Origin: Octopus sinensis
Lineage: Eukaryota
Length of the DNA: 64,000 bases
Direction of reading: 5' to 3'
Assembly: GCF_006345805.1 (NCBI RefSeq)
Contig: NC_043005.1
Span: 69,874,001 to 69,938,000, forward strand
Shown here: positions 1 to 54,435 of the stretch, in pieces
Layout of the letters: every line of letters starts with the position of its first letter
How positions within the stretch are numbered: the first letter of the stretch is position 1
Notes under the pieces: model-generated
Told to the model about the DNA's origin: nothing
Database searches by the model: none
The model's input: the letters and a program-made list of their open reading frames with translations, nothing else
Translations under genes and position numbers: made by a program

Positions 1-259
1 ATTATATATATATATATAAGCAAGAAGGGTAGTAATATTATTTACTACCAGGTGCCCAGCACAAAAGACGAATTAGTCATAAGACAAAAATATTATTCAT
101 ATAGAAAAATATTATTCATGTGGTTATACAATTAAGGGCACCTAAATACACATGCCCGTGTAAATTTTGCGTCTGCGCAGAGATTTGAAAAGTTAAGATC
201 TGCTAGTAGTCGGGTTTAACATATAGCCCCACATCGCTGCAGACATCGATTAAATTCAG

Positions 260-339
260 GCGACTCGCTGATGAAGCCAGCCTTAGCAAACATATTCTGT
301 GTTTTGCTAGAAAGAAGCAGAAACCGCGGTACGAGTTGT
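260..339 (+). ncRNA. Type I hammerhead ribozyme motif, intact core
   Basis: Stem I GCGACTCG/CGAGTTGT, CTGATGA at 268-274, long stem II (TTAGCAAA..TTTTGCTAG), GAAAC-CGCG-GTA with palindromic loop 3. Predicted cleavage after A331. Confidence 0.85.
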
Positions 340-704
340 TAAAGTTATCGGTAAACGTTTTTGATTTTCACTCTCGATAAATTCATCCCCTTTTTGTGTC
401 CCCAGCACTCGGCATCTTTATTTAGGTGCCCTTAATTGTATAACCACATGAATAATATTTTTCTATATGAATAATATTTTTGTCTTATGACTAATTCGTC
501 TTTTGTGCTGGGCACCTGGTAGTAAATAATATTACTACCCTTCTTGCTTATATTCGCATACTACATGATGAATTTATTCGTAAAATTCTTCCCGGCATGC
601 CCGTGTAAATTTTGCGTCTGCGCAGAGATTTGAAAAGTTAAGATCTGCTAGTAGTCGGGTTTAACATATAGCCCCACATCGCTGCAGACCTCGATTAAAT
701 TCAG

Positions 705-784
705 GCGACTCGCTGATGAAGCCAGCCTTAGCAAACATATTCTGTGTTTTGCTAGAAAGAAGCAGAAACCGCGGTACGAGTTGT
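705..784 (+). ncRNA. Type I hammerhead ribozyme motif, second tandem copy
   Basis: Same sequence as 260-339 shifted by 445; CTGATGA at 713-719; predicted cleavage after A776. Confidence 0.85.
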
Positions 785-894
785 TAAAGTTATCGGTAAA
801 CGTTTTTGATTTTCACTCTCGATAAATTCATCCCCTTTTTGTGTCCCCAGCACTCGGCATCTTTATTTAGGAGCCCTTAATTGTATATATATAG

Positions 895-2480: not shown

Positions 2481-2843
2481 TCCTGTTTTATGTCTTATAC
2501 TACTTTTTTAGGCATTTATTATTAGGTCTCCAGATCTACTTCTGATTATACTTTAAAAAATACTATTCTAACGATAACTGTATAAATGGCTTGAGTGAAT
2601 GTACTTATGCTGGGAGTTATAATATTTGAACCAAGATTCAGAAATCACCGATCTGGAAAATTATTTCAGTGAATGTCATAACACGAAGTCAAGTGGTGCT
2701 TTGTAGATGTTTGTGTCCTGCATTTGATACTGAACTCTCCTTTAATGAAATATTCTAGAAATAAATGAATGATAACATTTCAAAGGATCGGCTTTCTCCT
2801 TAAGTCGCTCATATAAATTATATATATATAAGGGTGAAAAAAA

Positions 2844-3166
2844 TTAACACCAAGTGGTTTAGCGCATAAAAACTGGGACACAGTAAAAATTAATACACAC
2901 ATATAAGAGAGGGTCCACTATATGGACGCTCTTGCGCTTAAAATAGATCCGCAATGGTCTCAACCACCAAGGATTGTTCCCAAGGAGAATTAGCACAATT
3001 ATGAACATAGTTGTGGTAATTCTCCTTGGGAACAATTCTTTGTGGCTGAGACCATTGCGGATCTATTTTTAGCGCAAGAGTGTCAACATAGTGGACCCTC
3101 TCTTATATTTGTGTATTAAGATTTACTGTATCCCAGTTTTTAATGCGCTAAACCACTTGGTGTTAA
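2844..3166. repeat. Foldback with ~160-bp inverted arms between TA tracts
   Basis: TTAACACCAAGTGGTTTAGCGCAT... at 2844 mirrors ...ATGCGCTAAACCACTTGGTGTTAA ending 3166; short loop near 3005. Confidence 0.9.
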
Positions 3167-3271
3167 ATTGATGTTATTAAATTAATATCCAATCGTTTCA
3201 CCTTTATATATGTATATATATATATACATATATACATATACATACACACACATATATATATATATACATAT

Positions 3272-4305: not shown

Positions 4306-5560
4306 TTGGGTTGGCAAGAAAGTAATTTGTTTTTTTTTTTGTGTGAAAATAAGTCACCTTTTCTTCATACAATGAATGAAATTTAATCAGTTATAAATTT
4401 TCCAGTTTCTCCGATTATCTTTTTCCATCTTTCTGCCGACTTCATGAATCCGCGCTCATAGATCATCTGGTCCTTATCAGCCAAACACTGAAGCAAGTGC
4501 GATTTCAGGTCATCGTCATTATTGAAAGTTTTATCATTCAAAGAATTTGGTAAACGTCGAGATAAATGGCAAGCTGCTGGTGTAAGTTCAGGGCTATATG
4601 TTGTATGTGACATCCATTCCAAACAAGGCTCAAATAATTTTTCATGAGTTAGCAAACGTTTCTGGTCTAGCTTTGTTATGGTGTAACACGATTCCTTTGC
4701 GAGTTGTCATTTTTTACCGTTTGTCTTTGATTGCTTCCTCCAGTTTCAAGAGTCGTTGACAGTAAGTATCTAAATTGATCATGTGCTTACTTGAAAGTAG
4801 CTCAAAATACACAACGCATTTGTAATCCCACGAAATTGACAGCATGAACTTTTTTATGCAGTTCAGCTTTCCATGTGTTTTTGCAGGTTCATTACGCTTG
4901 GACCATGATCATTTTCGATTGATGCTATTGTAGACTATCCATATTTTATCACCATTGATGATCCGTTTAAAAACAAGATCGATTTCATTGCATTTGAGAT
5001 GCATTTCACAAATATTTATTTATGTTAGGTGACACTTATTCAATTTATGTGGAACCAAAATATCGAGCTTCTTAAGGAGTCACGGATATTTTAAGTGATT
5101 TTCAGTTGTATGTGATACATTTAACGTCTCTGTAATATCTCGCACATTTATATGACAATCAGATTCAATTATGGCTTTGATTCGGTCCTCATCAACTTCA
5201 CTAGGTTGAGCAGAACGTTGGACATCTTTGAGTGAACAATATCCAGAACGGAATTTATAAAACAGTTTCTGACATATGTATTCTGTTAAGCAATCGACAC
5301 CATAAACTTCACATATCTCTTTCTGAGCCTCAGCGGCTTTCTTGCATTTATGGAAATAGTAAAATCAAAATATGGCGAAAACTTTTGCTCTCTGTGTTAA
5401 AATTGACACTGATCTAGCAGGTGTAAACGAAACTACGCGCAATGTTCTGAAAGTAATGGCTATCAAATTTCAAATGGAATACATTATAGCACTAACAAAA
5501 GTCATCCAAAATAATCTTAACTCTGTTTCCGAAAAATGAAAATGCTTTCTTGCCAACCAA
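4306..5560 (-). mobile_element. Mariner DNA transposon, full-length relic with disrupted transposase
   Basis: TIRs TTGGGTTGGCAAGAAAG / CTTTCTTGCCAACCAA with TA on both sides. Minus-strand WVPHK near 5050; YSPELTP (YSPDLAP-like) in ORF 4383-4655. Confidence 0.92.
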
Positions 5561-10768: not shown

Positions 10769-11321
10769 TTTTTCAGATTTATGTATGCTAGACTACTGGT
10801 TTTAAATTAATATTATTAATTTATCTCCCTCATTAGTTAAATATTGAAATAAATACGTTCTCTAGTAGCCAGCATTAACCGCAGTAAATTATTTACTGCA
10901 GTTCTTCGCTACAGAAATTTTTAAAGCGCCAGAACTAAAACATTTGAAATTTATCCCTATTGTAATCGGTAAAACTAAACACGTGTCTGTTTTGGCACAG
11001 AAAGCTGGGGTTAGTTTTTTTCAGTTTACATTTGTTCTGAACGATTGTACTGACGAGACTACGGACATTTGAATTATGTAAGTAATTCTTTCGTTAATAG
11101 TCGAAACCGAGGTATGCGATTAATTCTGTTTTTTATATAAATTTTCATCTGTCTTACCCGCCTAATTTGTTTCTGGTGTTTCGCTGAATTGTAGATTGAT
11201 CGTTGATGGTCTACATCTAGCATGCGGCCGACTACATAGCGGTCTTGCCTTGTCAATATATACACACACATATATATATATATTTAGGTATGTATCTACT
11301 TCTATCCTTCTCTCTCTCTCT

Positions 11322-11377: not shown

Positions 11378-11929
11378 TATTAAATTAGAGATAAAACCAC
11401 TATTAGGCAAATCAAACAGTGAAAATCATAAGCCAATACATAGAAATAAAATTAATTAAAAATGTAAAAAAACATCTTTATATATAAAGAGAGGTTGTCT
11501 GCTGTCTGTCTCCTACGATTTAGAATCCTAACTACTCCCACATTTTGCGGTGCAGTTTAACCAAAACCGGGTATCTTATAGCCGTGATTCATATCGAGCC
11601 CTTCTAGGTATTAGCGCGCGTCTACGATGAGTCTACGCTATTAAAAATAATTTAACATCAATTTATCCCATTTTTTATGCATTTTTGGAATATATAAGGG
11701 AAGTAACTCTCTAAAAAGCTACAGTAACACCCCCCCCCTTTGTGGTTAGCCATATTGAGATGGCTATTATACTTTACATCTCTAAAAATGCTTATATAGT
11801 ATTTTACCCTTACAAACCCGAGCAACGCCGGGCAATACTGCTAGTAAAATATAAAATATAAAAATCGAATTAAATTAAAGTTAAAATTTTTAAAAATGAT
11901 TTAAATTAATAAATTAAACTTATAAATTT

Positions 11930-11994
<65 letters not shown>

Positions 11995-12143
11995 ACATTA
12001 ATTTAAATATTTTAATTGGATTTTTTATATCTTATATTTTATATTTTATATTTTTTATATTTTTTAATTAATTTCATTTCTATGTATTGGCTTATGATTT
12101 TCACTGTTTGATTTGCCTAATAGTGGTTTATCTCTAATTTAAT
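11374..12143. repeat. AT-rich foldback element in (TA)n, interrupted by a Helitron
   Basis: 11374-11470 mirrors ~12055-12143 (TTAGGCAAATCAAACAGTGAAAATCATAAGCCAATACATAGAAAT and its reverse complement). Confidence 0.8.
11475..11844 (+). mobile_element. Non-autonomous Helitron, 370 bp
   Basis: 5' TC after A; subterminal hairpin CCCG-AGCAACGC-CGGG at 11817-11832; 3' CTAG followed by T; no TSD. Confidence 0.85.
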
Positions 12144-12249
12144 ATTATATATATTTATACTATAAAATTAGATTTAATCCTAAATCTAATTATTCCCTGT
12201 AAGTTTGGATTTACTCCCTAATATTTTATTATTTTATTATCTATATATA

Positions 12250-12300
<51 letters not shown>

Positions 12301-12788
12301 CATCCAGACATACAAACAAACATACATACAGCGAAAGGGGACATCTAGTGATAATTCATAAGGAATTTGCAAATCTAGCATCCAACATACATTTTCTGCA
12401 TTATACCTTTTATCGTTGGGCAATAGAATGAATACCAACCCATCTGGTGCAACGTATGGATAAAATTGAAATATTGAGGAGAGAATGCAAATTAATTCAT
12501 ACTCTATAAAGGATCACAATATATGGGACTACCTGTGATACATATAAGGAACAGTGATAGATGTACAAAGTAACCATAAAATAATAAATAAATGTATACA
12601 TAGATAAATAAATAAATTCATATTAAGTGCACGGATGTAAACAGTATATGAAGCTATCCCTTACACACACGCAAACACCCACACACAAAAAAATTTGCCG
12701 GACAGCCATTATAATATCAACGACACGAATAACAACGACAGCAACAACGATGACAATAACAATATCAAATATATATAATATATATAAT

Positions 12789-12862
<74 letters not shown>

Positions 12863-13401
12863 ATTTCAACAATTGAGGGTAAAATTAATTAATTATTAAT
12901 CAATTTCACCAAGTATTCAGTATGTAAAGGGACCATTTAAGGCGAATTCAAAATATTACATTTTATAAAGGGCTTAGTAAAATAAATTACTTTGCCACAT
13001 ACCGAACTCATTAGAAATAGCAGCCAAAAAAAATTTTTTTAGCCAAATTCTAATACTTAAAGAAAATTTCTCTCAGATAGTGCTTACTCAAAATAGCCCA
13101 CGAAGGTATGGGGGTAAAAACATTAAAAAAATCACAAGTGCAAAGGTTATTTGAGAACGTACGTTTCTAGATCAGCCAAATACAATTCGACATTTCTCTC
13201 TGTTTAATGCTTCGGTTTTCACCGATAAAATTATGGTGTTTGCTAGGTTAGCCCACGTGAGTGGAAAGGGGAGGCCAGAAATTCTTCGCTTGCATATTTT
13301 GAATTTGTTGGCACTGTTAGTCTGAACGGATCTTCGGAGGTGAAAAGTCGCCAAAAGGATATGCTCCTACTTTCAGTGTTTACAAATCCGAATTAAGAAA
13401 T

Positions 13402-13463
13402 TTTGGGCTGACTCAAGAAATGTCGAATTGTATTTGGCTGATCTAGAAACGTACGTTCTCAAA
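13402..13463 (+). ncRNA. Hammerhead motif with mutated core (CTGACTC)
   Basis: Same fold as 13969-14030 but CTGACGA changed to CTGACTC; likely inactive. Confidence 0.6.
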
Positions 13464-13968
13464 TAACCTTTGCACTTGTGATTTTTTTAATGTTTTTACC
13501 CCCATACCTTCGTGGGCTATTTTGAGTAAGCACTATCTGAGAGAAATTTTCTTTAAGTATTAGAATTTCGCTAAAAAAATTTTTTGGGGCTGCTATTTCT
13601 AATGAGTTCAGTATGTGGCAAAGTAATTTATTTTACTAAGCCCTTTATAAAATGTAATATTTTGAATTCGCCTTAAATGGTCCCTTTACATACTGAATAC
13701 TTGGTGAAATTGATTAATAATTAATTAATTTTACCCTCAATTGTTAAAATTATAATTCATTTCTCTCTGTTTAATGCTTCGGTTTTCACCGATAAAATTA
13801 TGGTGTTTGCTAGGTTAGCCCACGTGGGTGGAAGGGGGAAGGCAGAAATTCTTCGCTTGCATATTTTGAATTTCTTGGCACTGTTAGTCTGAACGGATCT
13901 TCGGAGGTGAAAAGTCGCCAAAAGGGTATGCTCCTACTTTCAGTGTTTACAAATCCGAATTAAGGAAT

Positions 13969-14030
13969 TTTGGGCTGACGAAAGAAATGTCGAATTGTAT
14001 TTGGCTGATCTAGAAACGTACGTTCTCAAA
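13969..14030 (+). ncRNA. Type I hammerhead ribozyme motif, intact core
   Basis: Stem I TTTGGG/CTCAAA, CTGACGA, stem II AGA..GTCGAAT-TGT-ATTTGGC..TCT, GAAAC-GTAC-GTT; predicted cleavage after 14024. Confidence 0.82.
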
Positions 14031-14186
14031 TAACCTTTGCACTTGTGATTTTTTTTATGTTTTTACCCCCATACCTTCGTGGGCTATTTTGAGTAAGCAC
14101 TATCTGAGAGAAATTTTCTTTAAGTATTAGAATTTGGCTAAAAAATGTTTTTTTGGCTGCTATTATATATATATATATATATATAT

Positions 14187-14760
14187 AGCTCGATCCCAAG
14201 CAAGGGTTTCTGTATCACCTGGATCAATTCCAAGCGACTTCATAGTTGTCCTTATGCCGTCCTTAAATCTTTTTTTAGGTATTCACCCGATCGAGCTGGA
14301 TGGCAAACAAAAGTATGGAGTAGAGTGAAAGCGTTTGAAGTAGCGAGGCCAACGCATGCACGACTCAAAAGAGATTTAAGGAAGAATGCTACGATCGAGA
14401 AGCTGGCTCACAATGACCTTTTTGTGTTCAGTTTATGACAAACCACGCCTTTCTTTCGCTGGGCTCAAATTTAATTTTTGAACGCACGGTAAACTAACCT
14501 CCACCAAATATTCTGGCTCTATGTCTGTGCACAAATTTGAATGCAATGTGTGCCAGCAGGTTCCAAATCTAACTGACGTCTCAAATGACATTTTAAGATT
14601 CACAAGATCGGTAATCATCTGCTGCTCTTGGTGGGCCAATCGGATATTCAATCTATGTGGGTGTCTTTTCAGAACATTATCTGGTTTAAAAAGTGACATC
14701 AGATGCCATGACGGTTCTAGAGTACAAGTACAGGAAGTGGTCAAACTCTGCATAAGGTGT
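14187..14760 (-). mobile_element. RTE-clade LINE fragments
   Basis: Minus strand reads PKKRFKDGIRTTMKSLGIDPGDTETLAWDRA, typical of an RTE ORF C-terminus; upstream WHL and CTD words resemble the endonuclease end. Confidence 0.65.
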
Positions 14761-14812: not shown

Positions 14813-14929
14813 GCGCGCGCGCACACACACACATATATATAAACGTGTATACGTGTTTTAATCAATAAATATCTTGACAGTTGCCATTGTATCGAAATTA
14901 AAGCGGCTTAGCACAGATTGCATGCCTGC

Positions 14930-15620
14930 TAAGCTTTAACGTCCTAGCTCACTTCCAGTGTTTACAGCAGTGCTTGAAAGGAATGTGTGTAACGTGTGAT
15001 CGTCGCACTGACTATGACAGAGAAAGTTGAAGAGAGCATCTGCATAAAATTTAGCCAAAATCTTGGCAGCTCCTGCTCAAATGACTTTGTAATGTTTTGA
15101 AAAGGCTTTCATGGTCCTCAACACAATCAAGTTGGTCTTGTGCAACTAAAACCTGAGTGTCATTTTTTCAACTGAAAGCGGTCTTGGCACTAATTGGCAG
15201 ACTCGCATCTCATACTCAAATCTTCAGAGATAACGGACTGAACTGAACTGTACATCTTCTGATAACTGAACTGCACATCATCTTACGGATGATGGTTCGA
15301 CGATTTCCATTACAGCTACACGCACATCTGCGGTATTTTTCTCAGAACCGTCAATATATAGATATCTTTCTGCCATTTTGGAGACGTCGAAAGATCTCAT
15401 ACATTTGTGTGCGGTTCATAAACCCCTCTACATTTAATTTCTGAAACACTGCATAGACCTCTGAGCAGGTATCGCCATCACAACTTTCTCTGTGATTCTT
15501 AACGTGAGGATCACACGCTACACACCTTCCTTTCATGCATTGCTGTAAACAACGGAAGTGTGCTAGAATTTTAAAACTTAGAGTGCATGCACAAGCGAGT
15601 TCACGTTCACTACTTGCCAA
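14930..15620. mobile_element. Two converging mariner 5' fragments
   Basis: Plus strand MTEKVEESICIKF at ~15013. Minus strand GDTCSEVYAVFQK..MNRTQMYEIFRRLQNGR and a VPRPLS word. Upstream leaders 14940-15010 and 15500-15575 are imperfect inverted copies. Confidence 0.7.
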
Positions 15621-18863: not shown

Positions 18864-19007
18864 ATATGAGAGAGTATATGCATATGTCTGTGTATGGACA
18901 TTTGAATATATACTATGTATACAGATATTTATTTTTTAGGAAGTTATGTACTTTTTTTATTAATGTATGACTGCGCTTTTAAGTTTGCTGGCCAGCCTGC
19001 AATAATA

Positions 19008-20281
19008 TTGGGTTGTCCGGAAGGTTCGTGCTGATTTTTAAAGGGAAGAAAAAGGTCAATAAATACTTGCCATTACATTTGTAATCAACCAAATATGAAC
19101 CATTTTGTTGCACAATGCGTCTCCATCTTTCCTTTAACTTGAAAATACTATCTTCCCAGAATTGAGGTAGTTTCATGGCAAAGAATTCATCAAGGTAGCT
19201 TTTTATGTCATCCAATAAATTGAATTTTTTACCATTTAAAACTATCCTGCAAGGACTTGAATAAGTGGAAATCCGAAGGACAAATATCTTGTGAATATGG
19301 AGGGTGGGGTAACACATTCCATCCGAGCTGCAGCAATGTTTGCCTGGTTCCCAAAGAAACGTGCGGTCTTTCATTATCATGTTGGAAAACAATACCCTTC
19401 CTCTGTTTGACAATCTGGACGTTTCTTTTGAATTGCTGCTTTTAACTCGTCCAGTGGTGAGCAGTATTTATCAGAATTAATTTTCTGGTCACTTGGAAGA
19501 AGCTCATAGTACAGATATTCTTTCCAATCCCACCAGACACAAAGCAAGACTTCTTTAGGGTGAAGACCTGTTTTGGGGGTGGCTAAGGGTGGCTCATGTC
19601 GCTTACTCCAGGATCGCTTTCTCTGAACATTTTGGTAGATAATCTATTTCTCATCTCCTGTCAAAATTTGCTTTAAAACGGGCGCGTTTTCATTCCGCTT
19701 TTTCATTCCGCGAATCACAGATGGAAGTGCGATCCAAAAGGTTCTCCTTACTCAACTCATGTGGTACTCAAACATCGTAGCCATTTGTGTACCCAAGCTT
19801 TATCAGGTGCTCATGAACGACGGATTTTGATAGGTTGAGGATTTTTGCCAATTCTCGGGTAAGGCAAAGTAAGTAATTCTCAATGACTTGATTTGGTTAT
19901 CATCTGTAGTGGATGGTCTGCCTGATTGCTGTTTATCAATATGGCTAAGATCGCCATCTAAGAACCTTGCGAACCACTTCTTTATATTTGTTTCGGATAA
20001 ATAAACATCACCGTAAACTGCGCATATCTTTTTGGGGTTGCTTGTGTTGCATTTTTACCTTTACAGAAAAAGAAAAGCATCAAGTGTCGAAAATGAACTT
20101 TTTTATCTTCCATTTTAAAGGGTTATAAAATTATAGGAACATAAAACTTCTTCCATGAAAAGATAGCATAAACTGTGCTCTAAATGGAGGTGTAGTCAAA
20201 TTGTATTTTATGGACCCAACCATGTTCTAAAATCAGTCGAAAAGTAAGCTACAATCGGCATGTACTTTCCGGACAACACAA
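19008..20281 (-). mobile_element. Mariner DNA transposon, full-length relic
   Basis: TIRs TTGGGTTGTCCGGAAGGTTCGTGCTGATT / AATCGGCATGTACTTTCCGGACAACACAA with TA on both sides. Transposase starts MEDKKVHFRH at 20113 and ends LKERWRRIVQQNGSYLVD; frameshifted. Confidence 0.93.
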
Positions 20282-20738: not shown

Positions 20739-20975
20739 CATATTCTGTTGTGTCTGAGGGGATTCATTTTCTTTTTGTGCCTTATAATTTAACACATTCA
20801 CCGGTAAAATTTTCACTTCGTCCTTATTTTTATTTTCCTAAAATTGTCCTTGCTCCTTGCAACATTTTTAATGATTATTGAAACTGTTGCAAGGAATAAG
20901 TGGAAATTTTACCGGTGAGTGTGTTAAATTATAAGGCATAAAAAAAATGAATCTTCCTAGACACAACAGAATATG
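20739..20975. repeat. Foldback adjoining a TA tract
   Basis: ATATTCTGTTGTGTCT..CACCGGTAAA mirrors TTTACCGGTG..AGACACAACAGAATAT; the left arm carries a ~35-bp extra segment. Confidence 0.8.
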
Positions 20976-21209
20976 CTTCAACACACGAACTCACATAAAG
21001 AATCTTGCAAACTAAATCCAGAAACGAAATATATACATATATATATCACTGCAACTTTTCGCAAGCCTGAAGAAGAGTCTTGTCTCTTTCATGGCCTTCA
21101 GGTTAAGAAAGTCGCTTTGCAAACATTATATATGTTCATCTTGCTAATAGGTTAGTTAGGGCTTGTTCCATGTGAGGAAATTTCTTATAGGTAAATGTGT
21201 TTAATCTCG

Positions 21210-21244
<35 letters not shown>

Positions 21245-21247
<3 letters not shown>

Positions 21248-21685
21248 TGGTACACCGGCGATTATAATTATTTTATTGTATCGCATTTATCTTTGTTTAC
21301 ATATTCTCTCGATAAATTTCTGACCGTTAGACGATATACCACAATCCCCTATTTTGTCGGGTTTTCGGAGTCTGCGCAGTGTTTTGAATAGTTTAGAAAG
21401 AGCATTTCGATAGACGCACATGGATCTATTGGTATGGTCTTTCCATCATTAACAGGAATCTTACTGAAGAGCCAGCCTGAGTAAATAAATACTATTTTTA
21501 TTACTGAATTTGCGAAACTGCAGTATAAGAAAAGTTAAGTTTGTAAAAGTTTTTAATTCTCATCTCACTAAATTATCCAGCTATTGTGATTAGTACACTC
21601 TTCGCCTTGATGGTAATGATATATGTATAATATGGCGTGTACTGGTACACGCGATTATAATTAATTTTATTGTATCATTTATCTT

Positions 21686-21690
<5 letters not shown>
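21245..21690 (+). mobile_element. HHR-bearing monomer (family 1-related), 395-bp unit with ~50-bp terminal direct repeat, in (TA)n
   Basis: TACTGGTACAC..GCGATTATAATT at 21245 and 21640. Shares GTCTGCGCAG, GCCAGCCT and CTCTCGATAAATT with family 1. Confidence 0.8.
21459..21530 (+). ncRNA. Type I hammerhead ribozyme motif, intact core
   Basis: Stem I TCTTA/TAAGA, CTGAAGA at 21464-21470, stem II closed by GC/GC, GAAAC-TGCA-GTA; predicted cleavage after 21525. Confidence 0.85.
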
Positions 21691-24226: not shown

Positions 24227-27000
<2,774 letters not shown>

Positions 27001-27657
27001 ACGACGGGTTTCTTTCAGGTTCCGTCTGCCGAATCCGCTCACAAATCTGTGGTCGGCTCAAGGCTATAGTAGAAGACACTTGCCGTAGACTGAACCCGGA
27101 GCCATGTGGTTCATAAGCAAGCTACTTACCACACATCCACTCCTACGATTTCTTTTTACTTTTTGAGTTAAATAACGGTTTATTGTATGCTAAATAGCTT
27201 CGCTATATTGAACAAATAACACAAGGATTCATATTATCCTTACTTATATTAGCGAAGATGTAATTGCATAGAAAGTGGTTTGATCTGAGATCGTGTGCTG
27301 TAAATAGAGCGATTGCAGTGCGGGAGATATAAGTTAGACATTCAGAAACACACAAAACTGTCAACTTCACTTAAGCAATTGTAATATGGTGTCAAAACTT
27401 CCGTCTTTCGTGTCAGCGACCTATTAACTTATAAAATTGTTTGTCACGCCTGGGTATTTTCGAAAATACTGCAATTATTATCGTTTGTGATGGCTTTGAG
27501 CTCATTTTAGTTGCGATGGAATATGTCAGGCGTTATGTTTGGGGGTAGGGTCCATAGCCTGTTTTTACTACGGGATCTCAGCAATCACACTAATTGTGCC
27601 TTTGGCATTGAATTGTTAATTTTATTGGATGGATAGTGCCCAACGTAACAAAAGCAG

Positions 27658-29330: not shown

Positions 29331-31586
29331 AAATTTAGTCTTTGTCTCAATATAAGACAGAAATATATGTATTAATATGCCGGATGTTTCTCGTGGACGT
29401 ACGCACGATTTGTTTAAGAGAATTGCCAAATGTTTATAATTGAAAAATATGCCACTATCCTTTGGAGAAAAATCGCTAGTTTATAATTCATAATTGGATT
29501 ATACAAATCTTCTTTTATAGGTCGTGACAGTATTTTGTCGATTAGTAGTGATCACCCACTGGCGCACAACTTTGTGGCAAATTTATATATTCCTTGAGGA
29601 TAGGGCTAATTGTTTTTCATTTTCTGAAGCGTTTCTGGTGAATATTTATGCTCTGAATTTGTATTAGCATTTTACTAAAATCTTGATTGCGTACAAATTC
29701 GTATATCATCCTTATTCTGGATGTTTTAGCAAAGTTTGCTTTTACTAATAATGGTAGAGTCGCATTGTAAAGAGGAATGCCTCAAAAGAAAGTAAAACTA
29801 TCTTGAAATTTTGTCAGAATATTTAAAGATAATAATTGTTTGAAATATTCCAATAAAAATAAAATTATACTCTTAAAAAATAAAACGCAGCTATAGCCAA
29901 AATCTGTTTACCAGAAGAACATTAAGAAATGTTGGCAGAAAGCTGGAAACTTGCCAATTCTAACTGTCAGTGGTAACGTTGATTTTAAAAGCAGTGAGGG
30001 AAAAATATATGAAATCTTCAAAATCTGAAATAAATAATAAATGAAGACTATAAAAATATAGGTGGAATAATAATCTACTATATCGTGATTTTTCTGCTGA
30101 AATTTGAAATCTGGCAAAACGAAAGATACATTCCAAGTTAGTCCTGATATAAAGTTAAGAAACATTTCGGGTTTCTAAAAAGATTGGAGTTATAACTATG
30201 CACGCATGTGCGCAAAACGCGCACACGTACACATACACACACATACACGCACACAATAGCATACACACAAACGTACATACGCAAACACACACACCGGCAC
30301 ACACATACATACTTACACAATATGTATGCATATATGTGTGTATATATAGATACGCACATATATTTTCATATATATATATATATATATATATATGCTATAT
30401 TCTGTAAAGAACATAGTAGAGCTCATTATAGAGCTCGCCCACCTTCAAATTTACCCTGTGCTGTCCAGTAGTAGTATTATATGCACTTCCAGGTTTGCGT
30501 TTGGGCATCTATCGTGTGTGAACAGGTAATTCAACAAATTGGAGTCAACAAGAATGGGTACAGTTGGACATTTATTTTTAATCACTACATTTGTTTCAAC
30601 GCAATGAAGTACCGCTCGGCAGGTACTTGATTATGGAACTGTTTCGCTGCATTATGGGAGGTAGTTGTGTTTCCTCAGGTGATATGTAATATTGCCTCCG
30701 TACGTTTAAATTCCTAGCCTTCAAGGACATCGTATCTATCTGTTCTGGCCTGCATTGAGGCCACGCGAGAGGAAACACAACATCTCATAATGCAGGGAAA
30801 CAGCACCTGAAAGGCATGGTCATTCATGGTGTATTCGTGAATAAATCAAAAACCGAAATATTTTTGAACGCTTTTGCCGCAGTTTTCATGGGCGCACCGG
30901 ACGAGAACTCAAATTTGATCTTTTCTGAGAAAGCGTCCCAACATGTAAAAAGCCTGTGACCTTTATGACAGTGCATATGACCAATGGGCGGAAATCATAA
31001 CTAAGGGATTTTATGTAGGTTATTTTCCATTAGCCGATAAAGAAATGTAAACTGAACGGCTTAAGAAAACATCAACACAGCTAACAATATGAATTAAGAA
31101 AATGTTCCTGCATGCAAACAACGCCTGATTTGTATGAAGTTAGTGCAGATTGCAATGTTATTGATAGATAATGGTGCTTTTTATCTGCTTGTGTGGTTGG
31201 TTTTTACATAGAGTACATCGTTACAAAACAGCTATCACAATAAACTAAGAAAGTATTCCTACATGTAAACTGGGTGTGATCTTTGTGATGACAGTGCATT
31301 TGTCTAAAAGCAGAACTGCTGTCCTTCATGGAGCGCTTGTCAATTGGCTGAAGCGACAGGAAAGGCATTGTCTTTTCATGGCATACTCGTGAATAAGTCA
31401 GAAACCGAAATAAGTCGATCTATTGTTTAGGAAAATAGTATTTACTTGTTCAAGTGTTGTACTGGGTAAGTTGCAAAAATAACAGTTCAAATACTAAGAA
31501 ATAAACATACTCAAATTGATTCATAGCAAATAAAATCAGTGACCTTGTCTGACAATTTCTTGTAAGAGAGCCCACATAATGTAGAA

Positions 31587-31642
<56 letters not shown>

Positions 31643-33989: not shown

Positions 33990-34876
33990 CTATGTATATA
34001 TAAAGGGTTAGGTGTGGTGTTCAGATATTGAATATTGAGAAAAAACGTCGCCAGTGTTCTGGAATTTTTTTTTATTTATCTATTATTATTAGCAATTTCG
34101 TTCGTTTCATGAACTTGTCAAATAGAACTTTGAGAATGTACACACATCTTGTTCATTTATATAAAACAGATGTTTGGCGAGGATTTCTTTGAGAAGAGGA
34201 GAACATTTTTTGTTTTGATGAGATTCCATGAAAATAGAGATAGATAGATAGATAGAAAGATAGGTAGGTTGATAGATAGATAAATAGTCAGACAGAGAGA
34301 TAGAGAGGTAGAGAGGGGGAGAGACAGGAGAGGAAGGGGATCTCCCTTACTATCTATTCACCATTGTATTGAAATAGGTTTAAGAATGGTAACTCTTGAA
34401 TAAAACAGGTGTACTGTGGTCATCACTGAAATTTATTTTGCTTTCTTTCTCTCCATTTTCCCCGTCTTCCCTTCTTTATTTTAACTGTTCTTCCTTTTTG
34501 TCCCCGTTTCTCCTCTTTCCTACTTTTTTCATCTTCCTTTCTTTTTCTCTTCTCTGAGTTATAATTAGAATACAAAATATGGTGTCTCTGCTTTTCTTTC
34601 AAACATTCAGTTTTGCAGAGAATTTTTGATGAAATGTAGTTCTTGATATTTACAGAGATGAGCACTATGTTTCCAATATTCGAGTTATATTTTAGAATAG
34701 AAAATGGACTCTCTCTGCTTTTCTTTCAAACATTCAATTTTGGAAAGAATTGTTTGATGAAATGTATCTATATTACTTTTCGGTAATGCGGATCGTCTCG
34801 TGCACATTCTTAAAAGGGAAGAATTTTGAATTTTCCGTCGCTGCATATTTCCTATATATCTATCTATCTATCTATC

Positions 34877-35165
34877 TTTTTTTTTTTCCTTTTCCCCTTT
34901 TTCCCCCTTTTTTCTTCTTTTTTCATTTCTTTTTTCATTTGTTCCTTTTCCTTTTCTTTTCTTTTTTCTTTTTATTCTTTTCATTTATTTTTATTTATTT
35001 TTTGTTCTTTTCTTCCCTTTTACGATCCCTCTTGATCGAAAACCTACGCCACCTCTTTTTTTTTCTTTTCATCCCCCAAAAGAAAAGCGCTACCTTGTAA
35101 CTTGTCCCATCTGTGTGCAGCCCTGTGTGGCCAATAAAGAAACTTATCTATCTATCTATCTATCT
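34877..35165 (+). mobile_element. 3' UTR fragment of a Tx1/L1-like LINE inside (TATC)n
   Basis: Homologous to 36240-36415 (ACGATCC..TTGATCG, AAAAGCGCTAC, CTGTGTGGCCAATAAA); (TATC)n on both sides. Confidence 0.7.
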
Positions 35166-35169
35166 ACCA

Positions 35170-36415
35170 ATCTTTCCTAGGTGATCCATTTGCTGTGAAC
35201 AACTGCTAAATTGAGGGCTGGGCATGCCGTGTTTGATGATGCATAGACATCCCCTCATACTGCGACATCTACGGCGCTCCATAGACGACAGTGAACATGT
35301 GTTGTTGCTGTTTGCGCGGCGCACTTTTCTACAGCTCGTCGTGTTTGGGAGAACTGCAGTCGTGGATCAAACAAAGGCCGAGGTTAGGCGAATGGCACCA
35401 CAAGTCTCAAGTGACTCTGCCGTCCGGGACCAACCTTATGCGATTTCAATTTAACAAACGTGTTCTATAGAGGATTAGTGGAGGGGAGGTGCGACGACTT
35501 TCAAGAAGTAGAATCTGGGTGTCAACGAGGAACACCCAACCAGCCTGTTCAGGACAACTTTTGGGCCGGTACCTATGGACAATCACCAGAAATACCTGAC
35601 CTGGCAGCTATCAAGAATCAATGCCCATTTCGGGATAAGCTATACAAGCAGGCTTCGAGACACACCAGACCGACTTGCCTGAGACGCGTTCAAGGTGACG
35701 AAACCGTTCTGCACGCACTCGTGCAGTGTCCAACCATTTCGGATATGTGGGCTTATGCCGAACGGATGCTGTTACGTGTGGGACGAGTTCGCTTGTCGGC
35801 CGAGTCTATGGTGAAAATTACTCCGTCACAATCTCTTAACCGGGACGGCAAGGCAGTCTTCATTGTACCGGTGGCCATGGTTAAATAATGTGAGTGGTGG
35901 AATCGAACGAAGGTTTTAAAGACAAACACTTACCTCTCTGGCCAATCGCTAATCAACTTGTTTAAGTACCACTTGAAAAGGAATGTAATAATAGAGAGAA
36001 GTCTTGTCTCGTGAAACATTCAATAAAGGCTGGGTGAATGTAGCAAACATGATACGTACGAATGAGAAAACCACTTTGAGCATGATCTTGTAAATGGTAA
36101 AGGACGAGATTAAGAGAGTTAGGTAGTAATTTGCCCTCATGTGTTTCCTCCTCCCTGCCTGACGTTACCGTGCTCTTTTTCGCAGGCTTTTCTTTCTAAG
36201 GATAAACCTAATTTGTCTCTTTTTTTACATTAATGATTTTTCTGTGATACACGATCCCTTTTCCTTCCTTTGTTTTTGTTTTACACGATCCTTTTTGATC
36301 GGAAATTTATTTCCGCTTCCTTTTCTTTGACTATTTTCAAAAAGCTCTACATTTTATTTTTGTTCCCTCTGTGTTCGACTCTGTGTAGCTAATAAAACTA
36401 CTTATTTATCTATCT
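35170..36415 (+). mobile_element. 5'-truncated Tx1/L1-like LINE: zinc-binding C-terminus and 3' UTR
   Basis: ORF 35460-35888 has PTCLRRVQGDETVLHALVQCP, a decayed CxxC..H..C zf-RVT motif; AATAAA then TATC at the 3' end. Confidence 0.8.
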
Positions 36416-36629
36416 CCATTGTTATGGAACCTCACCCAAAGAAACAAAAAAAAACTATGTTCTCCTCTTCTACAACATCTTCCCCTAAAAACACCTGTTA
36501 TATAAATGAACAAGCTGTTTGTACATTCAGAAAATTGGATTTGACAAGTTCAGGAAACCAACGAATGCACTAATAATAATGAATAAATGAAAAGAATTGT
36601 TTTTCCAAATTCGGGCGATGTTTTTTCTG

Positions 36630-36684
<55 letters not shown>

Positions 36685-36870: not shown

Positions 36871-36951
36871 ATATATATATAATATATAATATATATATAT
36901 CTATATATATATATATATATATATAATATAGTATTATATATATATAACCAT

Positions 36952-37081
36952 TATTGGTGAATTGAAGAAATGGAGCTGAACGCAGATTGAACAGAAATCG
37001 TTTTATTTCACTATGAAATAAAAATGAAATAAAACGATTTCTGTTCATCTGCGTTCAGCTCCATTTCTTCAATCACCAATA
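36952..37081. repeat. Foldback with ~58-bp arms between TA tracts
   Basis: TTGAAGAAATGGAGCTGAACGCAGAT mirrors ATCTGCGTTCAGCTCCATTTCTTCAA. Confidence 0.9.
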
Positions 37082-37233
37082 TGTTTTAATTTCAATTATC
37101 CGCACCCCACCACGCACGGTTGAACCCAGATGGTTGTACCTCCAACCGTCTGTTCACTGCTGTGATTTTTGCTACTAAGGTATCGGTTAAACTTTTGATT
37201 AATCCACTACAAGATTATCATCTTCTATTTCAC

Positions 37234-37265
<32 letters not shown>

Positions 37266-41401: not shown

Positions 41402-41608
41402 TATATATATAATTTTACATTGTATAAAAGGGCTTAGTAAAATAAATTACTTTGCCACATACTGAACTCATTAGAAATAGCAGCCAAAAAAACATTTTTT
41501 AGCCATTTCTAATACTTAAAGAAAATTTCTCTCAGATAGTGCTTACTCAAAATAACCCACGAAGGTATGGGGGTAAAAAACATTAAAAATTCACAAGTGC
41601 AAAGATTA

Positions 41609-41670
41609 TTTGAGAACGTACGTTTCTAGATCAGCCAAATACAATTCGATATTTCTTTCGTCAGCCCAAA
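41609..41670 (-). ncRNA. Type I hammerhead motif, intact core, in the inverted arm
   Basis: Reverse complement of TTTGGG-CTGACGA..GAAAC-GTAC-GTT-CTCAAA. Confidence 0.8.
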
Positions 41671-42116
41671 ATTTCATAATTCGGATTTGGAAACACTGAA
41701 AGTAGGAGCATACCTTTTTGGCGACTTTTCACCTCAGAAGAACCGTTCAAACTAACAGTGCCAACAAATTCAAAATATGCAAGCGAAGCCCTTTTATACT
41801 ATGTAATATTTTGAATTCGCCTTAAATGGTCCCTTTACATACTGAATACTTGGTGAAATTGATTAATAGCTAATTAATCTTAACCTCAATTGTTGAAATT
41901 ATAATTCATTTCTCTCTGTTTAATGCCTCGGTTTCCACCGATAAAATATGGTGTTTACTAGTCTGACCCACGTGGGTGGAAGGGGGAGAGCAGGAATTCT
42001 TCGCTTGCATAATTTGAATTTGTTGGCACTGTTAGTTTAAACGGTTCTTCTGAGGTGAAAAGTCGCCAAAAAGGTATGCTCCTACTTTCAGTGTTTCCAA
42101 ATCCGATTTACGAAAT

Positions 42117-42178
42117 TTTGGGCTGACAAGAGAAGTGTCGAATTGTATTTTGCTGATCTTGAAACGTAAGTTCTCAAA
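42117..42178 (+). ncRNA. Hammerhead motif, degenerate
   Basis: Core CTGACAA and loop GTAA instead of CTGACGA and GTAC. Confidence 0.55.
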
Positions 42179-42682
42179 TAATCTTTGCACTTTTGAATTT
42201 TTAATGTTTTTACCCCCATAACTTCGTGGGTTATTTTGGGTAAGCACTATCTGAGAGAAATTTTCTTTAAGTATTAGAAATGGCTAAAAAATCTTTTTTT
42301 GGCTGCTATTTCTAATGAGTTCAGTATGTGGCAAAGTAATTTATTTTACTAAGCCCTTTTATACAATGTAGTATTCTGAATTCGCCTTAAATGGTCCCTT
42401 TACATACTGAATACTTGGTGAAATTGATTAATAGCTAATTTATTTTTACCCTCAATTGTTGAAACTATAATTCATTTCTCTCTGTTTAATGCCTCGGTTT
42501 TCACCGATAAAATATGGTGTTTACTAATCTGACCCACGTGGGTGGAAGGGGGAGAGCAGGAATTCTTCGCTTGCATATTTTGAATTTGTTGGCACTGTTA
42601 GTTTGAACGGTTCTTCTGAGGTGAAAAGTCGCCAAAAAGGTATGCTCCTACTTTCAGTGTTTCCAAATCCGAATTAAGAAAT

Positions 42683-42743
42683 TTTGGGCTGACGAAAGAA
42701 ATGTCGAATTGTATTTGGGTATCTAGAAACGTACGTTCTCAAA
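42683..42743 (+). ncRNA. Type I hammerhead motif, intact core
   Basis: CTGACGA 42689-42695, GAAAC-GTAC-GTT 42726-42737, stem I TTTGGG/CTCAAA. Confidence 0.8.
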
Positions 42744-43246
42744 TAATCTTTGCACTTGGGAATTTTTAATGTTTTTACCCCCATACCTTCGTGGGTTAGT
42801 TTGAGTAAGCACTATCTGAGAGAAATTTTCTTTAAGTATTAGAAATGGCTAAAAAATGTTTTTTTGGCTGCTATTTCTAATGAGTTCAGTATGTGGCAAA
42901 GTAATTTATTTTACTAAGCCCTTTTATACAATGTAATATTTTGAATTCGCCTTAAATGGTCCCTTTACATACTGAATACTTGGTGAAATTGATTAATAGC
43001 TAATTAATTTTACCCTCAATTGTTGAAATTATAATTCATTTCTCTCTGTTTAATGCCTCGGTTTTCACCGATAAAATATGGTGTTTACTAGTCTGACCCA
43101 CGTGGGTGGAAGGGGGAGAGCAGGAATTCTTCGCTTGCATATTTTGAATTTGTTGGCACTGTTAGTTTGAACATTTCTTCTGAGGTGAAAAGTCGCCAAA
43201 AAGGTATGCTCCTACTTTCAGTGTTTCCAAATCCGAATTAAGAAAT

Positions 43247-43308
43247 TTTGGGCTGACGAAAGAAATGTCGAATCGTATTTGGCTGATCTAGAAACGTACG
43301 TTCTCAAA
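43247..43308 (+). ncRNA. Type I hammerhead motif, intact core
   Basis: CTGACGA 43253-43259, GAAAC-GTAC-GTT 43291-43302, stem I TTTGGG/CTCAAA. Confidence 0.82.
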
Positions 43309-43971
43309 TAATCTTTGCACTTGTGAATTTTTAATGTTTTTACCCCCATACCTTCGTGGGTTATTTTGAGTAAGCACTATCTGAGAGAAATTTTCTTTAA
43401 GTATTAGAAATGGCTAAAAACCTTTTTTTGGCTGCTATTTCTAATGAGTTCAGTATGTGGCAAAGTAATTTATTTTACTAAGCCCTTTTAAACAATGTAA
43501 TATTTTGAATTCGCCTTACATGGTCCCTTTACATACTGAATACTTGGTGAAATTGATTAATAGCTAATTAATTTTACCCTCAATTGTTGAAATTATAATT
43601 CATTTCTCTCTGTTTAATGCCTCGGTTTTCACCGATAAAATATGGTGTTTACTAGTCTGACCCACGTGGGTGGAAGGGGGAGGGCAGGAATTCTTCACTT
43701 GCATATATATATATATATATATATGCAATTTATAATAGAATTTTTAAGTAATATTTCACAAGTCATCTCTTTACATTTTCTTTAAATTCTAAAGATTCAT
43801 AATGAATTAAATTGGGGATTCCATAATATGTATATATTTCCCCATCCTAAAATTGATATATGCTTATTACCCTTAAGCTTTCTGTAAGAACAAAAATTGT
43901 ATTTAGCAAGCCGTAACATCTTTGCACTTCTTCGAAAACTTTCCCTTAACGAATCTTAAATTAACGAGTGA

Positions 43972-52757: not shown

Positions 52758-53604
52758 ATCATATAATTAAGGGCTAAAGAGGGTTATTCTAAAGCCAATA
52801 CACTGATCTATCCACTTATAATCCGCTTGCTACACGAGAATTGAAACTGAAAACGGGCAACTAACCTTTAGAAAATTTAAATTTCGTTATCTCTATATTG
52901 AATCAATTTCGGAATTAATCTTATAAAAAGATATATTCTTTCTTCAGTAGAGCTTTCGATGGGATATAATAAAATACTCACGTATGATCATGGAAAAAGC
53001 ACAAGCTAAAAACATAACTACACTTGAGTACATCACTTATACCTAAAAATAAAAATTCTTTGGTCAGCCTCAGAAACAACGTCTTGACCTTTCGCCGCTA
53101 CAAATTGTAATGGTTACCGGTCCTCCCGTAGCAAGCAGCGAGTTTACTACTAACAATATAGGATGAAGTCCCTTTCTCCACAGAAAAGGAATCCATCCAG
53201 AATTTTTATTTTTAGGTATAAGTGATGTACTCAAGTGTAGTTATGTTTTTAGCTTCTGCTTTTTCCATGATCATATGTGAGTATTTTATTTATATCCCAT
53301 CGAAAGCTCTACTGAAGAAAGAATATATCTTTTTATAAGATTAATTCCGAAATTGATTCAATATAGGGATAACGAAATTTAAATTTTCTAAAGGTTAGTT
53401 GCCCGTTTTCAGTTTCAATTCTCCTGTAGCAAGCGGATTATAAGTGGATAAATCAGTGTATTGGCTTTAGAATAACCCTCTTTAGCCCTTAATTATATGA
53501 TGTTTATACTTCAACCGTAACGGTTTTTTTAAATATACTGCCCACGCTTCCTGATGGATTCCTTTTCTGTAGAGAAAGGGACTTCATCCTATATTGTTAG
53601 TAGT
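52758..53604. mobile_element. Foldback of a ~490-bp circularly permuted unit in (TA)n
   Basis: 52758-53059 mirrors 53199-53500, and 53146-53197 mirrors 53553-53604. Confidence 0.85.
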
Positions 53605-53633
53605 AGTAGTATATATATATATATAATATATAT

Positions 53634-53685
<52 letters not shown>

Positions 53686-53688
53686 TAC

Positions 53689-54267
53689 GCGAGAAAGAAG
53701 CAACAAGAATGGATAGGTTTTTAGTACAATCGTTTCATACAAGGACAGGCTTTATTAAAAGTTGCAAAAATTACAGCATATAAACGTGTCCCGTACTCAT
53801 CAGCTAAAATACATGTGAGTTCTCTAGACATCCTAGTGGTTGAGGCTATACTCATGAAGTAATGTAGATAATTAAGTAACATAAACAGATTTTCAAAGTT
53901 CATTAAAGTTCTTTAAAGATGATGTGCAGTCTTATCACAGAATTTTAAAAAAGTTTTAATAGCATCCCAGAGAAGGTGACCTAATCCATAGTGCTATTAA
54001 AACTTTTTTAAAATTCTGTGATAAGACTGTACATCATCTTTAAAGAACTTTAATGAACTTTGGAAATCTGTTTATGTTACTTAATTATCTACATTACTTC
54101 ATGAGTATAGCCTCAACCACTAGGATGTCTAGAGAACTCACATGTATTTTAGCTGATGAATACGGGACACGTTTATATGCTGTAATTTTTGCAACTTTTA
54201 ATAAAGCCTGTCCTTGTATGAAACGATTGTACTAAAAACCTATCCATTCTTGTTGCTTCTTTCTCGC
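53689..54267. repeat. Near-perfect foldback with ~276-bp arms, TA-flanked
   Basis: 53689-53964 mirrors 53992-54267 with a 27-bp loop; this explains the twin 60-aa ORFs. Confidence 0.95.
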
Positions 54268-54385
54268 TTATAATCACCCCACATTACTGTATTGTTAAAA
54301 CAGTATAGTTTTTTTTGGGTGCATCTAAGTTAGGTACCATATTCAAGTAAATTCATTTAAATTAACTTGAATCTTTATTGCTTTT

Positions 54386-54435
<50 letters not shown>

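Follow-up and report, generated by a model that had tools for sequence, protein, structure and literature searches.

The window analysed here, a stretch of 64,000 nucleotides of Octopus sinensis DNA, contains at positions 12862-14163 a two-armed insertion, which consists of an inverted arm of 336 nt and a direct arm of 973 nt, with the 3′ ends of both arms lying outward at (TA)n. With moderate confidence, this is regarded as a retrozyme-like, non-autonomous hammerhead repeat that was inserted in trans by twin priming without poly(A) on one tandem RNA. The inverted arm (12862-13197) matches 13416-13751 in reverse complement with 98.5% identity, begins within the hammerhead, without its CUGA core, and has its hammerhead-sense 3′ end on a TATA word adjoining the TA tract, 4 nt in phase. 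The direct arm (13191-14163) has a period of 567 with 96.3% identity and comprises 1.7 copies of a 567-bp hammerhead-bearing unit. A descriptor match at 13969-14030 places the hammerhead sense of this arm on the + strand, so that the long arm is hammerhead-sense and the 3′ ends of both arms point outward. One of the two hammerhead cores at this focal locus is intact. The outward orientation of the arms into TA, together with their coordinates, had been proposed in an initial annotation of the same DNA and is borne out by the arm alignment and the descriptor. All of the junction words that it named are present at the junctions, including the AAG joint at 41786-41788; the microhomology at the focal joint is likewise present, comprising the 7 nt CATTTCT (13191-13197) and not the 6-nt CATTTC. 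The repeat family concerned, here family A, has one further occurrence in the window, at 41412-43703 (Table 1).

Table 1. Features of the focal insertion and of the other hammerhead insertions, numbered from the first nucleotide of the window.
Feature	Position	Strand	Remarks
Left (TA)n tract	about 12769-12861		preceded by (CA)n; putative target and primer of the inverted arm
Inverted arm, 336 nt	12862-13197	-	unit positions 226-561(564)
Inner joint	13191-13197		7-nt microhomology CATTTCT common to both arms
First full 567-bp unit, family A	13191-13757	+	hammerhead core mutated (CTGACTC)
Second unit, 3′-incomplete, 406 nt	13758-14163	+	end GCTAT/T, in phase with the tract over only 1 nt
Type I hammerhead motif, intact core, palindromic helix III	13969-14030	+	descriptor match; predicted cleavage after 14024
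Right (TA)n tract	14164-14187
Family A, second insertion	41412-43703		inverted arm 41412-41788 and 3.4 units 41786-43703, AAG joint
Intact hammerheads of 41412-43703	about 42683, 43247 (+) and 41670 (-)		descriptor
Family B two-armed insertion, unit 445	19-885		inverted arm 19-156, direct arm 151-885
Family B hammerheads	259 and 704		descriptor
Family C two-armed insertion, unit 492 (putative)	about 52760-53609		inverted arm 52760-53197, direct arm 53199-53605 and extra TAG repeats
Family D two-armed insertion	53685-54387		280-nt arms flanking a 27-nt spacer, right arm longer
Family D hammerheads	54147 (+) and 53809 (-)		descriptor
Family E single-arm insertion in (TA)n	21247-21688	+	one 395-bp unit and about 50 nt of redundancy, hammerhead 21459

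The focal insertion is one of five two-armed hammerhead insertions in the window, which derive from four families (A-D). In all five the 3′ ends lie outward, for which the chance is 1/32 if orientation is free, and all ten outer ends adjoin TA tracts, the edges of which account for 1% of the window. Family B (19-885) ends on TATAT and TATA and has an imperfect ATGCC joint. The single-arm copy of family E (21247-21688) shows TA microhomology at its 5′ joint and a 3′ end in TACATAT, 6/7 in phase, while its terminal redundancy recalls the tail of Penelope or a single turn round a circle. Between 52760 and 54387, two different hammerhead families lie side by side with a common TA tract (53610-53683). 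A MITE reading of the hammerhead insertions was rejected, as the two outer ends fall at different unit positions, and an assembly fold-back artefact was rejected as well, the arms being 96-99% identical with independent changes.

Several loci stand outside the counts of ends and offsets. These are the single hammerheads at 11043 and 30683, for which sense or template continuation is not visible, and likewise two TA-bounded asymmetric palindromes without a hammerhead, 20739-21036 and 36947-37235. In both palindromes the outer end of the short arm coincides with an ATAT word or lies no more than about 5 nt from one, and both may represent similar events that are older or fragmentary. A TA-bounded segment of 1.2 kb (30394-31589) contains a candidate hammerhead on the minus strand, along with a direct repeat of period 551 that has decayed. 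The window in general is AT-rich and microsatellite-rich, and Pfam matches among its ORFs (n = 224) are confined to mariner and zf-RVT remnants, the former being broken Mos1-type transposase remnants at 4717-5364 and 18982-20054 (- strand). MITE-like elements with terminal inverted repeats occur at 2841-3205, 11378-12144, 14919-15591 and 34035-36631. The last of these encloses the zf-RVT remnant (35415-35885), and the second harbors at 11818-11846 a GC hairpin followed by CTAGT, which we take to resemble a Helitron 3′ end. For 2841-3205 and 11378-12144, which have symmetric termini, the MITE reading was accepted and both stand outside all counts. A 1368-bp tandem duplication (24255-27001) with 99.8-99.9% identity, TA tract included, is either very recent or an assembly artefact.

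The hammerhead descriptor gave 13 matches across the window, including those in family A at 13975, 42689, 43253 and 41664; in 100 simulations of the null the mean was 0.06 and the maximum 1. The matches define seven unrelated type I hammerhead families within 64 kb (259, 11043, 13969, 21459, 30683, 53307, 54147), of which those at 259 and 21459 have a common start of helix II. In most of the seven, helix III is palindromic or near-palindromic, which suggests dimeric cleavage. Rfam returned no hammerhead at gathering score and none among the best 150 of 229 matches with E up to 10, so that identification rests on the descriptor and the hammerheads are predicted ones. Minimum-energy unconstrained folds of eight hammerhead stretches do not show the full core, with a notable z-score in only one of them. 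Two or more successive units with a complete hammerhead are present in family A (42683, 43247) and family B (259, 704). The units are 62-70% AT and their ORFs lack a Pfam match at curated cut-off, indicating that they are non-coding; a 24-nt pattern of family A had 0 matches in prokaryotic genomes. Family A (564-567 bp) and family C (492 bp) exceed the typical unit length of 150-450 bp and are therefore filed as retrozyme-like, while B (445) and E (395) lie within it. No Penelope reverse transcriptase or GIY-YIG endonuclease was found among the 224 stop-to-stop ORFs of at least 55 aa in the window (low-complexity filtered); the element is thus not an autonomous member and the enzyme would have been supplied from elsewhere. 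The insertion ends, 3′ and 5′ alike, coincide neither with the hammerhead cut site nor with any one fixed site, for which reason setting of the ends by hammerhead cleavage was rejected. The four 3′ ends of family A lie 140, 203, 297 and 404 nt past the cut site, which is at odds with fixed initiation sites giving a 30-40-bp tail.

The relation of the 3′ ends to TA words was assessed through the in-phase match between unit and tract, with breakpoints placed at random within the unit concerned as the reference. Of 11 3′ ends, the 10 that have visible template continuation were included (54387 being without). The matches measure 5, 4, 4, 1, 1, 4, 2, 0-2, 0-3 and 2 nt, with a null mean of about 0.9 per end. 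Their sum is 23 against 9.3 expected under strict counting (p = 8e-4) and 28 under lenient counting (p = 2e-5). For the five ends named in the initial annotation p is 6e-6, and its best TA examples are selected cases. The five ends that it had not named sum to 5 against 4.8 under strict counting (p = 0.50), with p = 0.054 under lenient counting. A score over a 10-nt annealing zone gave 51 against 35.8 for the ten ends (p = 0.0016) and 25 against 18.2 for the five held-out ones (p = 0.04), and the focal locus by itself has a TA match p of 0.04. In a phase-free test, whose window width was chosen after the fact, an alternating word of at least 4 nt lies 0 nt from 5/10 ends (0.67 expected) and within 3 nt of 8/10 (1.5 expected), the held-out ends giving 1/5 at 0 nt (p = 0.34), 3/5 at 2 nt (p = 0.02) and 4/5 at 3 nt (p = 0.003). 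Each unit of family A has five alternating words, and three of the family's four ends fall on three different ones.

The enrichment of TA words at 3′ ends is thus real but modest. The earlier proposition that outer ends fall on such words stands against shuffled endpoints when all ten ends are taken together, and fails for the held-out five under strict counting and for the word GCTAT at the focal right end (14163), which is 1 nt in phase and has no alternating word of at least 4 nt within 6 nt. Clear misses are 14163 and 53605, and the left end at 41411, absent from the initial annotation, matches over 1 nt. As for annealing of the cut ends to UA-rich sites in the RNA, the preference for UA words agrees with it, but the match extends over just 1-5 nt and is almost lacking at 2-4 of ten ends. 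The ends are predicted to be unpaired in the RNA at 0.59 against 0.37. The antisense strand scores too, so the predicted accessibility is not specific to the RNA strand; under a null restricted to TA words the sense strand is favoured in 3/4 settings and the antisense in 0/4, a weak difference. At 53597-53609, a TAG run at the 3′ end of an arm exceeds that of the template copy by two units. The extension (53605-53609) suggests slippage, or reiterative copying at initiation by a telomerase-related polymerase, of which it would be a possible trace.

The inner joints share 7, 3, 0 or 5, and 0 nt in four of the five events, the fifth (53685-54387) not being assignable. The sum of 10 exceeds the 3.0 expected (p = 0.008, strict), a signal driven by the focal joint, where the chance of at least 7 nt is about 0.001 per joint. 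Joining of the arms via microhomology, as had been claimed, is suggested by the sum and less so joint by joint, one having 0 nt and one, that of 19-885, being imperfect.

Both TA words and inner microhomology are also expected from fold-back, and do not discriminate between it and two-sided priming. Under fold-back a single priming event, either target-primed or self-primed from antisense RNA, would be followed by snap-back through microhomology and self-copying, with the end joined across the TA tract by microhomology; we judge this to be rather unlikely. It predicts the same orientation, and self-priming is already published for head-to-head pLTRs in the accessible part of PMC3846280. Twin priming on one RNA, on the other hand, predicts that the start of one arm lies beside the site at which the other was primed. 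The offset was accordingly defined, modulo the unit, as the distance of one arm's 5′ end from the other arm's 3′ end (its priming site), and amounts to +42/-32 (19-885), +3/-182 (12862-14163), -25/-13 (41412-43703) and +189/-53 (52760-53609). The smaller offsets (32, 3, 13 and 53 nt) are nearer to zero than expected by chance (p = 0.014, or 0.064 when the focal event is omitted) in a test that was suggested by the focal event itself and has n = 4 events with known unit. For all eight offsets p is 0.009, and for all six without the focal event 0.013. The focal direct arm starts 3 nt downstream (modulo 567) of the word where the left arm ends. Such adjacency of the arms is not predicted by fold-back.

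Containment and sequence variants bear on the same choice. The inverted arm is contained in the direct one in three of the four events with known unit, as fold-back would have it, and neither arm is contained in the other in the remaining one. In this family C insertion (about 52760-53605), 85 nt are exclusive to the inverted arm and about 51 nt to the direct arm, so that neither arm was copied from the other, unless by way of a later deletion, which fold-back would need in order to yield it. The fifth event, 53685-54387, resembles a near-perfect hairpin with a 27-nt loop and agrees with fold-back. Alignment of family A shows about 22 positions at which the two loci differ and at which all copies within a locus agree, the inverted arm included, which makes each locus one event. 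The inverted arm at 41412 carries 0 of roughly 14 private changes that the nearest unit has over the same stretch. This speaks against fold-back and is informative only if the changes predate insertion, the nearest unit at 41786-43703 having 18 changes against 5-6 in its neighbours (chi-square p = 0.051). The unit 41907-42472 has a damaged hammerhead and private changes about three times more numerous than those of its neighbours; its template unit may already have diverged. The focal inverted arm has one derived two-base change in common with the adjacent unit and not with the distal one, as fold-back would give, and variant sharing at the focal locus gives no decision on it.

Two-sided priming could also have taken place on two separate RNAs, or on a circle with two enzymes, the cDNAs being joined wherever they had stopped. 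Orientation, TA words, non-containment and the hairpin-like event would all be explained in this manner. Both offsets are small in 2/4 events, and a circle might account for the single-arm copy at 21247, which extends 54 nt beyond one unit. If the molecules were separate, on the other hand, the arms would not be expected to adjoin. For the larger offset no departure from uniform is seen (p = 0.30), so that a circular template is not required, and the unequal divergence among the units of 41786-43703 is better matched by a multimer that was already heterogeneous than by repeated passes on one circle (p = 0.051). We hold this alternative to be unlikely, and lean towards an uncleaved linear multimer over a circle as the template.

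Short junction microhomologies and scattered ends are typical of microhomology-mediated repair, and host repair would account for both the short microhomologies at all three junctions and the scattered end positions, whether by capture of fragments at a broken (TA)n through microhomology-mediated end joining or by later deletions that trimmed the arms to TA words. Capture at the DNA level offers no reason for 3′ ends to point outward in 5/5 events, and trimming would scramble the observed adjacency of the arms, making host repair improbable. It is least probable of all that insertion itself produced most of the TA tract sequence, UA words being copied reiteratively and no pre-existing (TA)n being cut, a reading that could draw on the TAG run two units beyond the template at 53605-53609 but is opposed by the long tracts that adjoin even ends with a 1-nt match (14164, 41411) and by the 68 TA tracts of at least 16 nt in the window, most of which are without such elements.

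In twin priming on one tandem RNA, a reverse transcriptase acting in trans, most likely that of a Penelope-like element, would cut both strands of a presumably pre-existing (TA)n tract. Each 3′ end would then engage the hammerhead-sense RNA internally by putative annealing, UA words being preferred and pairing over 1-2 nt tolerated. With both primers on one multi-unit RNA, the downstream-primed cDNA would run to the upstream primer, in the focal case stopping 3 nt short of it, while the upstream-primed cDNA would stop further 5′. The cDNA ends would be joined, often by microhomology (7 nt at the focal joint), and the second strands filled in, to give an inverted and a direct arm with their 5′ ends inward and their 3′ ends at TA. 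The two-sided priming put forward in the initial annotation thus gains from the outward orientation in 5/5 events, from adjacency (p = 0.014) and from non-containment in 1/4, while the TA words and microhomology cited for it do not discriminate, and the non-homologous start of initiation in PMC11167929 weighs against it.

Metazoan non-LTR retrozymes, in the accessible parts of the reports on them, resemble the present repeats in being non-coding, AT-rich tandem units with a type I hammerhead each, and their mobilisation by Penelope-like elements is presumed there (10.1101/721605; 10.64898/2026.07.22.740005). Retrozymes are reported at 150-450 bp, and families A (565-567 bp) and C (492) are longer. 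Inverted arms, (TA)n targeting and junction structure of retrozymes are not described in the accessible text of either report, and that of 10.64898/2026.07.22.740005 does not mention priming, target site or insertion site.

Penelope-like elements with an endonuclease, according to the accessible portions of PMC8557442 and PMC3846280, carry an inverted 5′-truncated copy at the 5′ end and partial tandems, show a bias to (TA)n and have hammerheads in their pLTRs. An inverted 5′-truncated copy, a partial tandem and a microsatellite target are found here as well, in 5/5 two-armed events. They differ in that there is no ORF here and in that the 3′ ends are scattered and TA-biased, instead of two fixed sites bounding a 30-40-bp tail. 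The mechanism of inversion in these elements is given in the same portions as "undefined" (PMC8557442) or as antisense self-priming (PMC3846280). Purified Penelope protein, a predicted dimer, cuts and extends both strands and initiates internally on unprocessed RNA; in vitro, initiation takes place at a fixed AC-rich stem loop lacking homology with the target (PMC11167929). The cutting of both strands and the internal initiation fit twin priming, but the fixed, non-homologous start does not.

The insertions work like L1 twin priming, without being members of that system. As far as the accessible text on L1 goes, common features are an inverted 5′ segment, internal priming by short complementarity, a small gap or overlap and a direct arm that is usually longer. 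L1 also has microhomology joints, to which the inner joints here may correspond (7, 3, 0 or 5, and 0 nt, with p = 0.008 driven by one joint). The direct segment starts next to the priming site of the inverted segment in L1 and, at 3, 13, 32 and 53 nt, in the present events. L1 twin priming gives median deletions of 14.5 nt and duplications of 22 nt in the portion of 10.1101/2024.08.27.596794 that is accessible, and the offsets observed here are on that scale. Unlike L1, there is no poly(A) tail or T-rich primer, both primers would be (TA)n ends and both sites internal. The template differs too, being a tandem non-coding hammerhead RNA, and target duplication is not discernible within the microsatellite. 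Inverted arms and TA targeting are hence already known from Penelope-like elements and twin priming from L1, and it is their combination that would be the new part. In searches of an open-access library we found no twin-priming account of Penelope or retrozyme inversions, although the junction figures of PMC11167929 may bear on it.

The tandem and inverted insertions of Penelope-like elements and their microsatellite preference are named an open task in the accessible part of PMC8557442. The arm-offset statistic and the test of containment require only an assembled genome to tell apart twin priming, fold-back and circular templating. With seven hammerhead families in 64 kb, the question of mechanism is directly testable in this genome, and the offset approach would also indicate whether the RNA form that retrozymes use is the uncleaved multimer or the circle. 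More tentatively, and as a possibility that we rate below an even chance, tail-less twin priming may be the general route of Penelope-type integration, in which a dimeric enzyme acts on one tandem, possibly circular, hammerhead RNA and each polymerase halts near the primer of the other. If true, this would explain the head-to-head inverted pLTRs, the variable partial tandems and perhaps the 30-50-nt overhangs of these elements. It would replace the antisense self-priming model, and retrozyme insertions, which have no fixed ends, would record the process directly.
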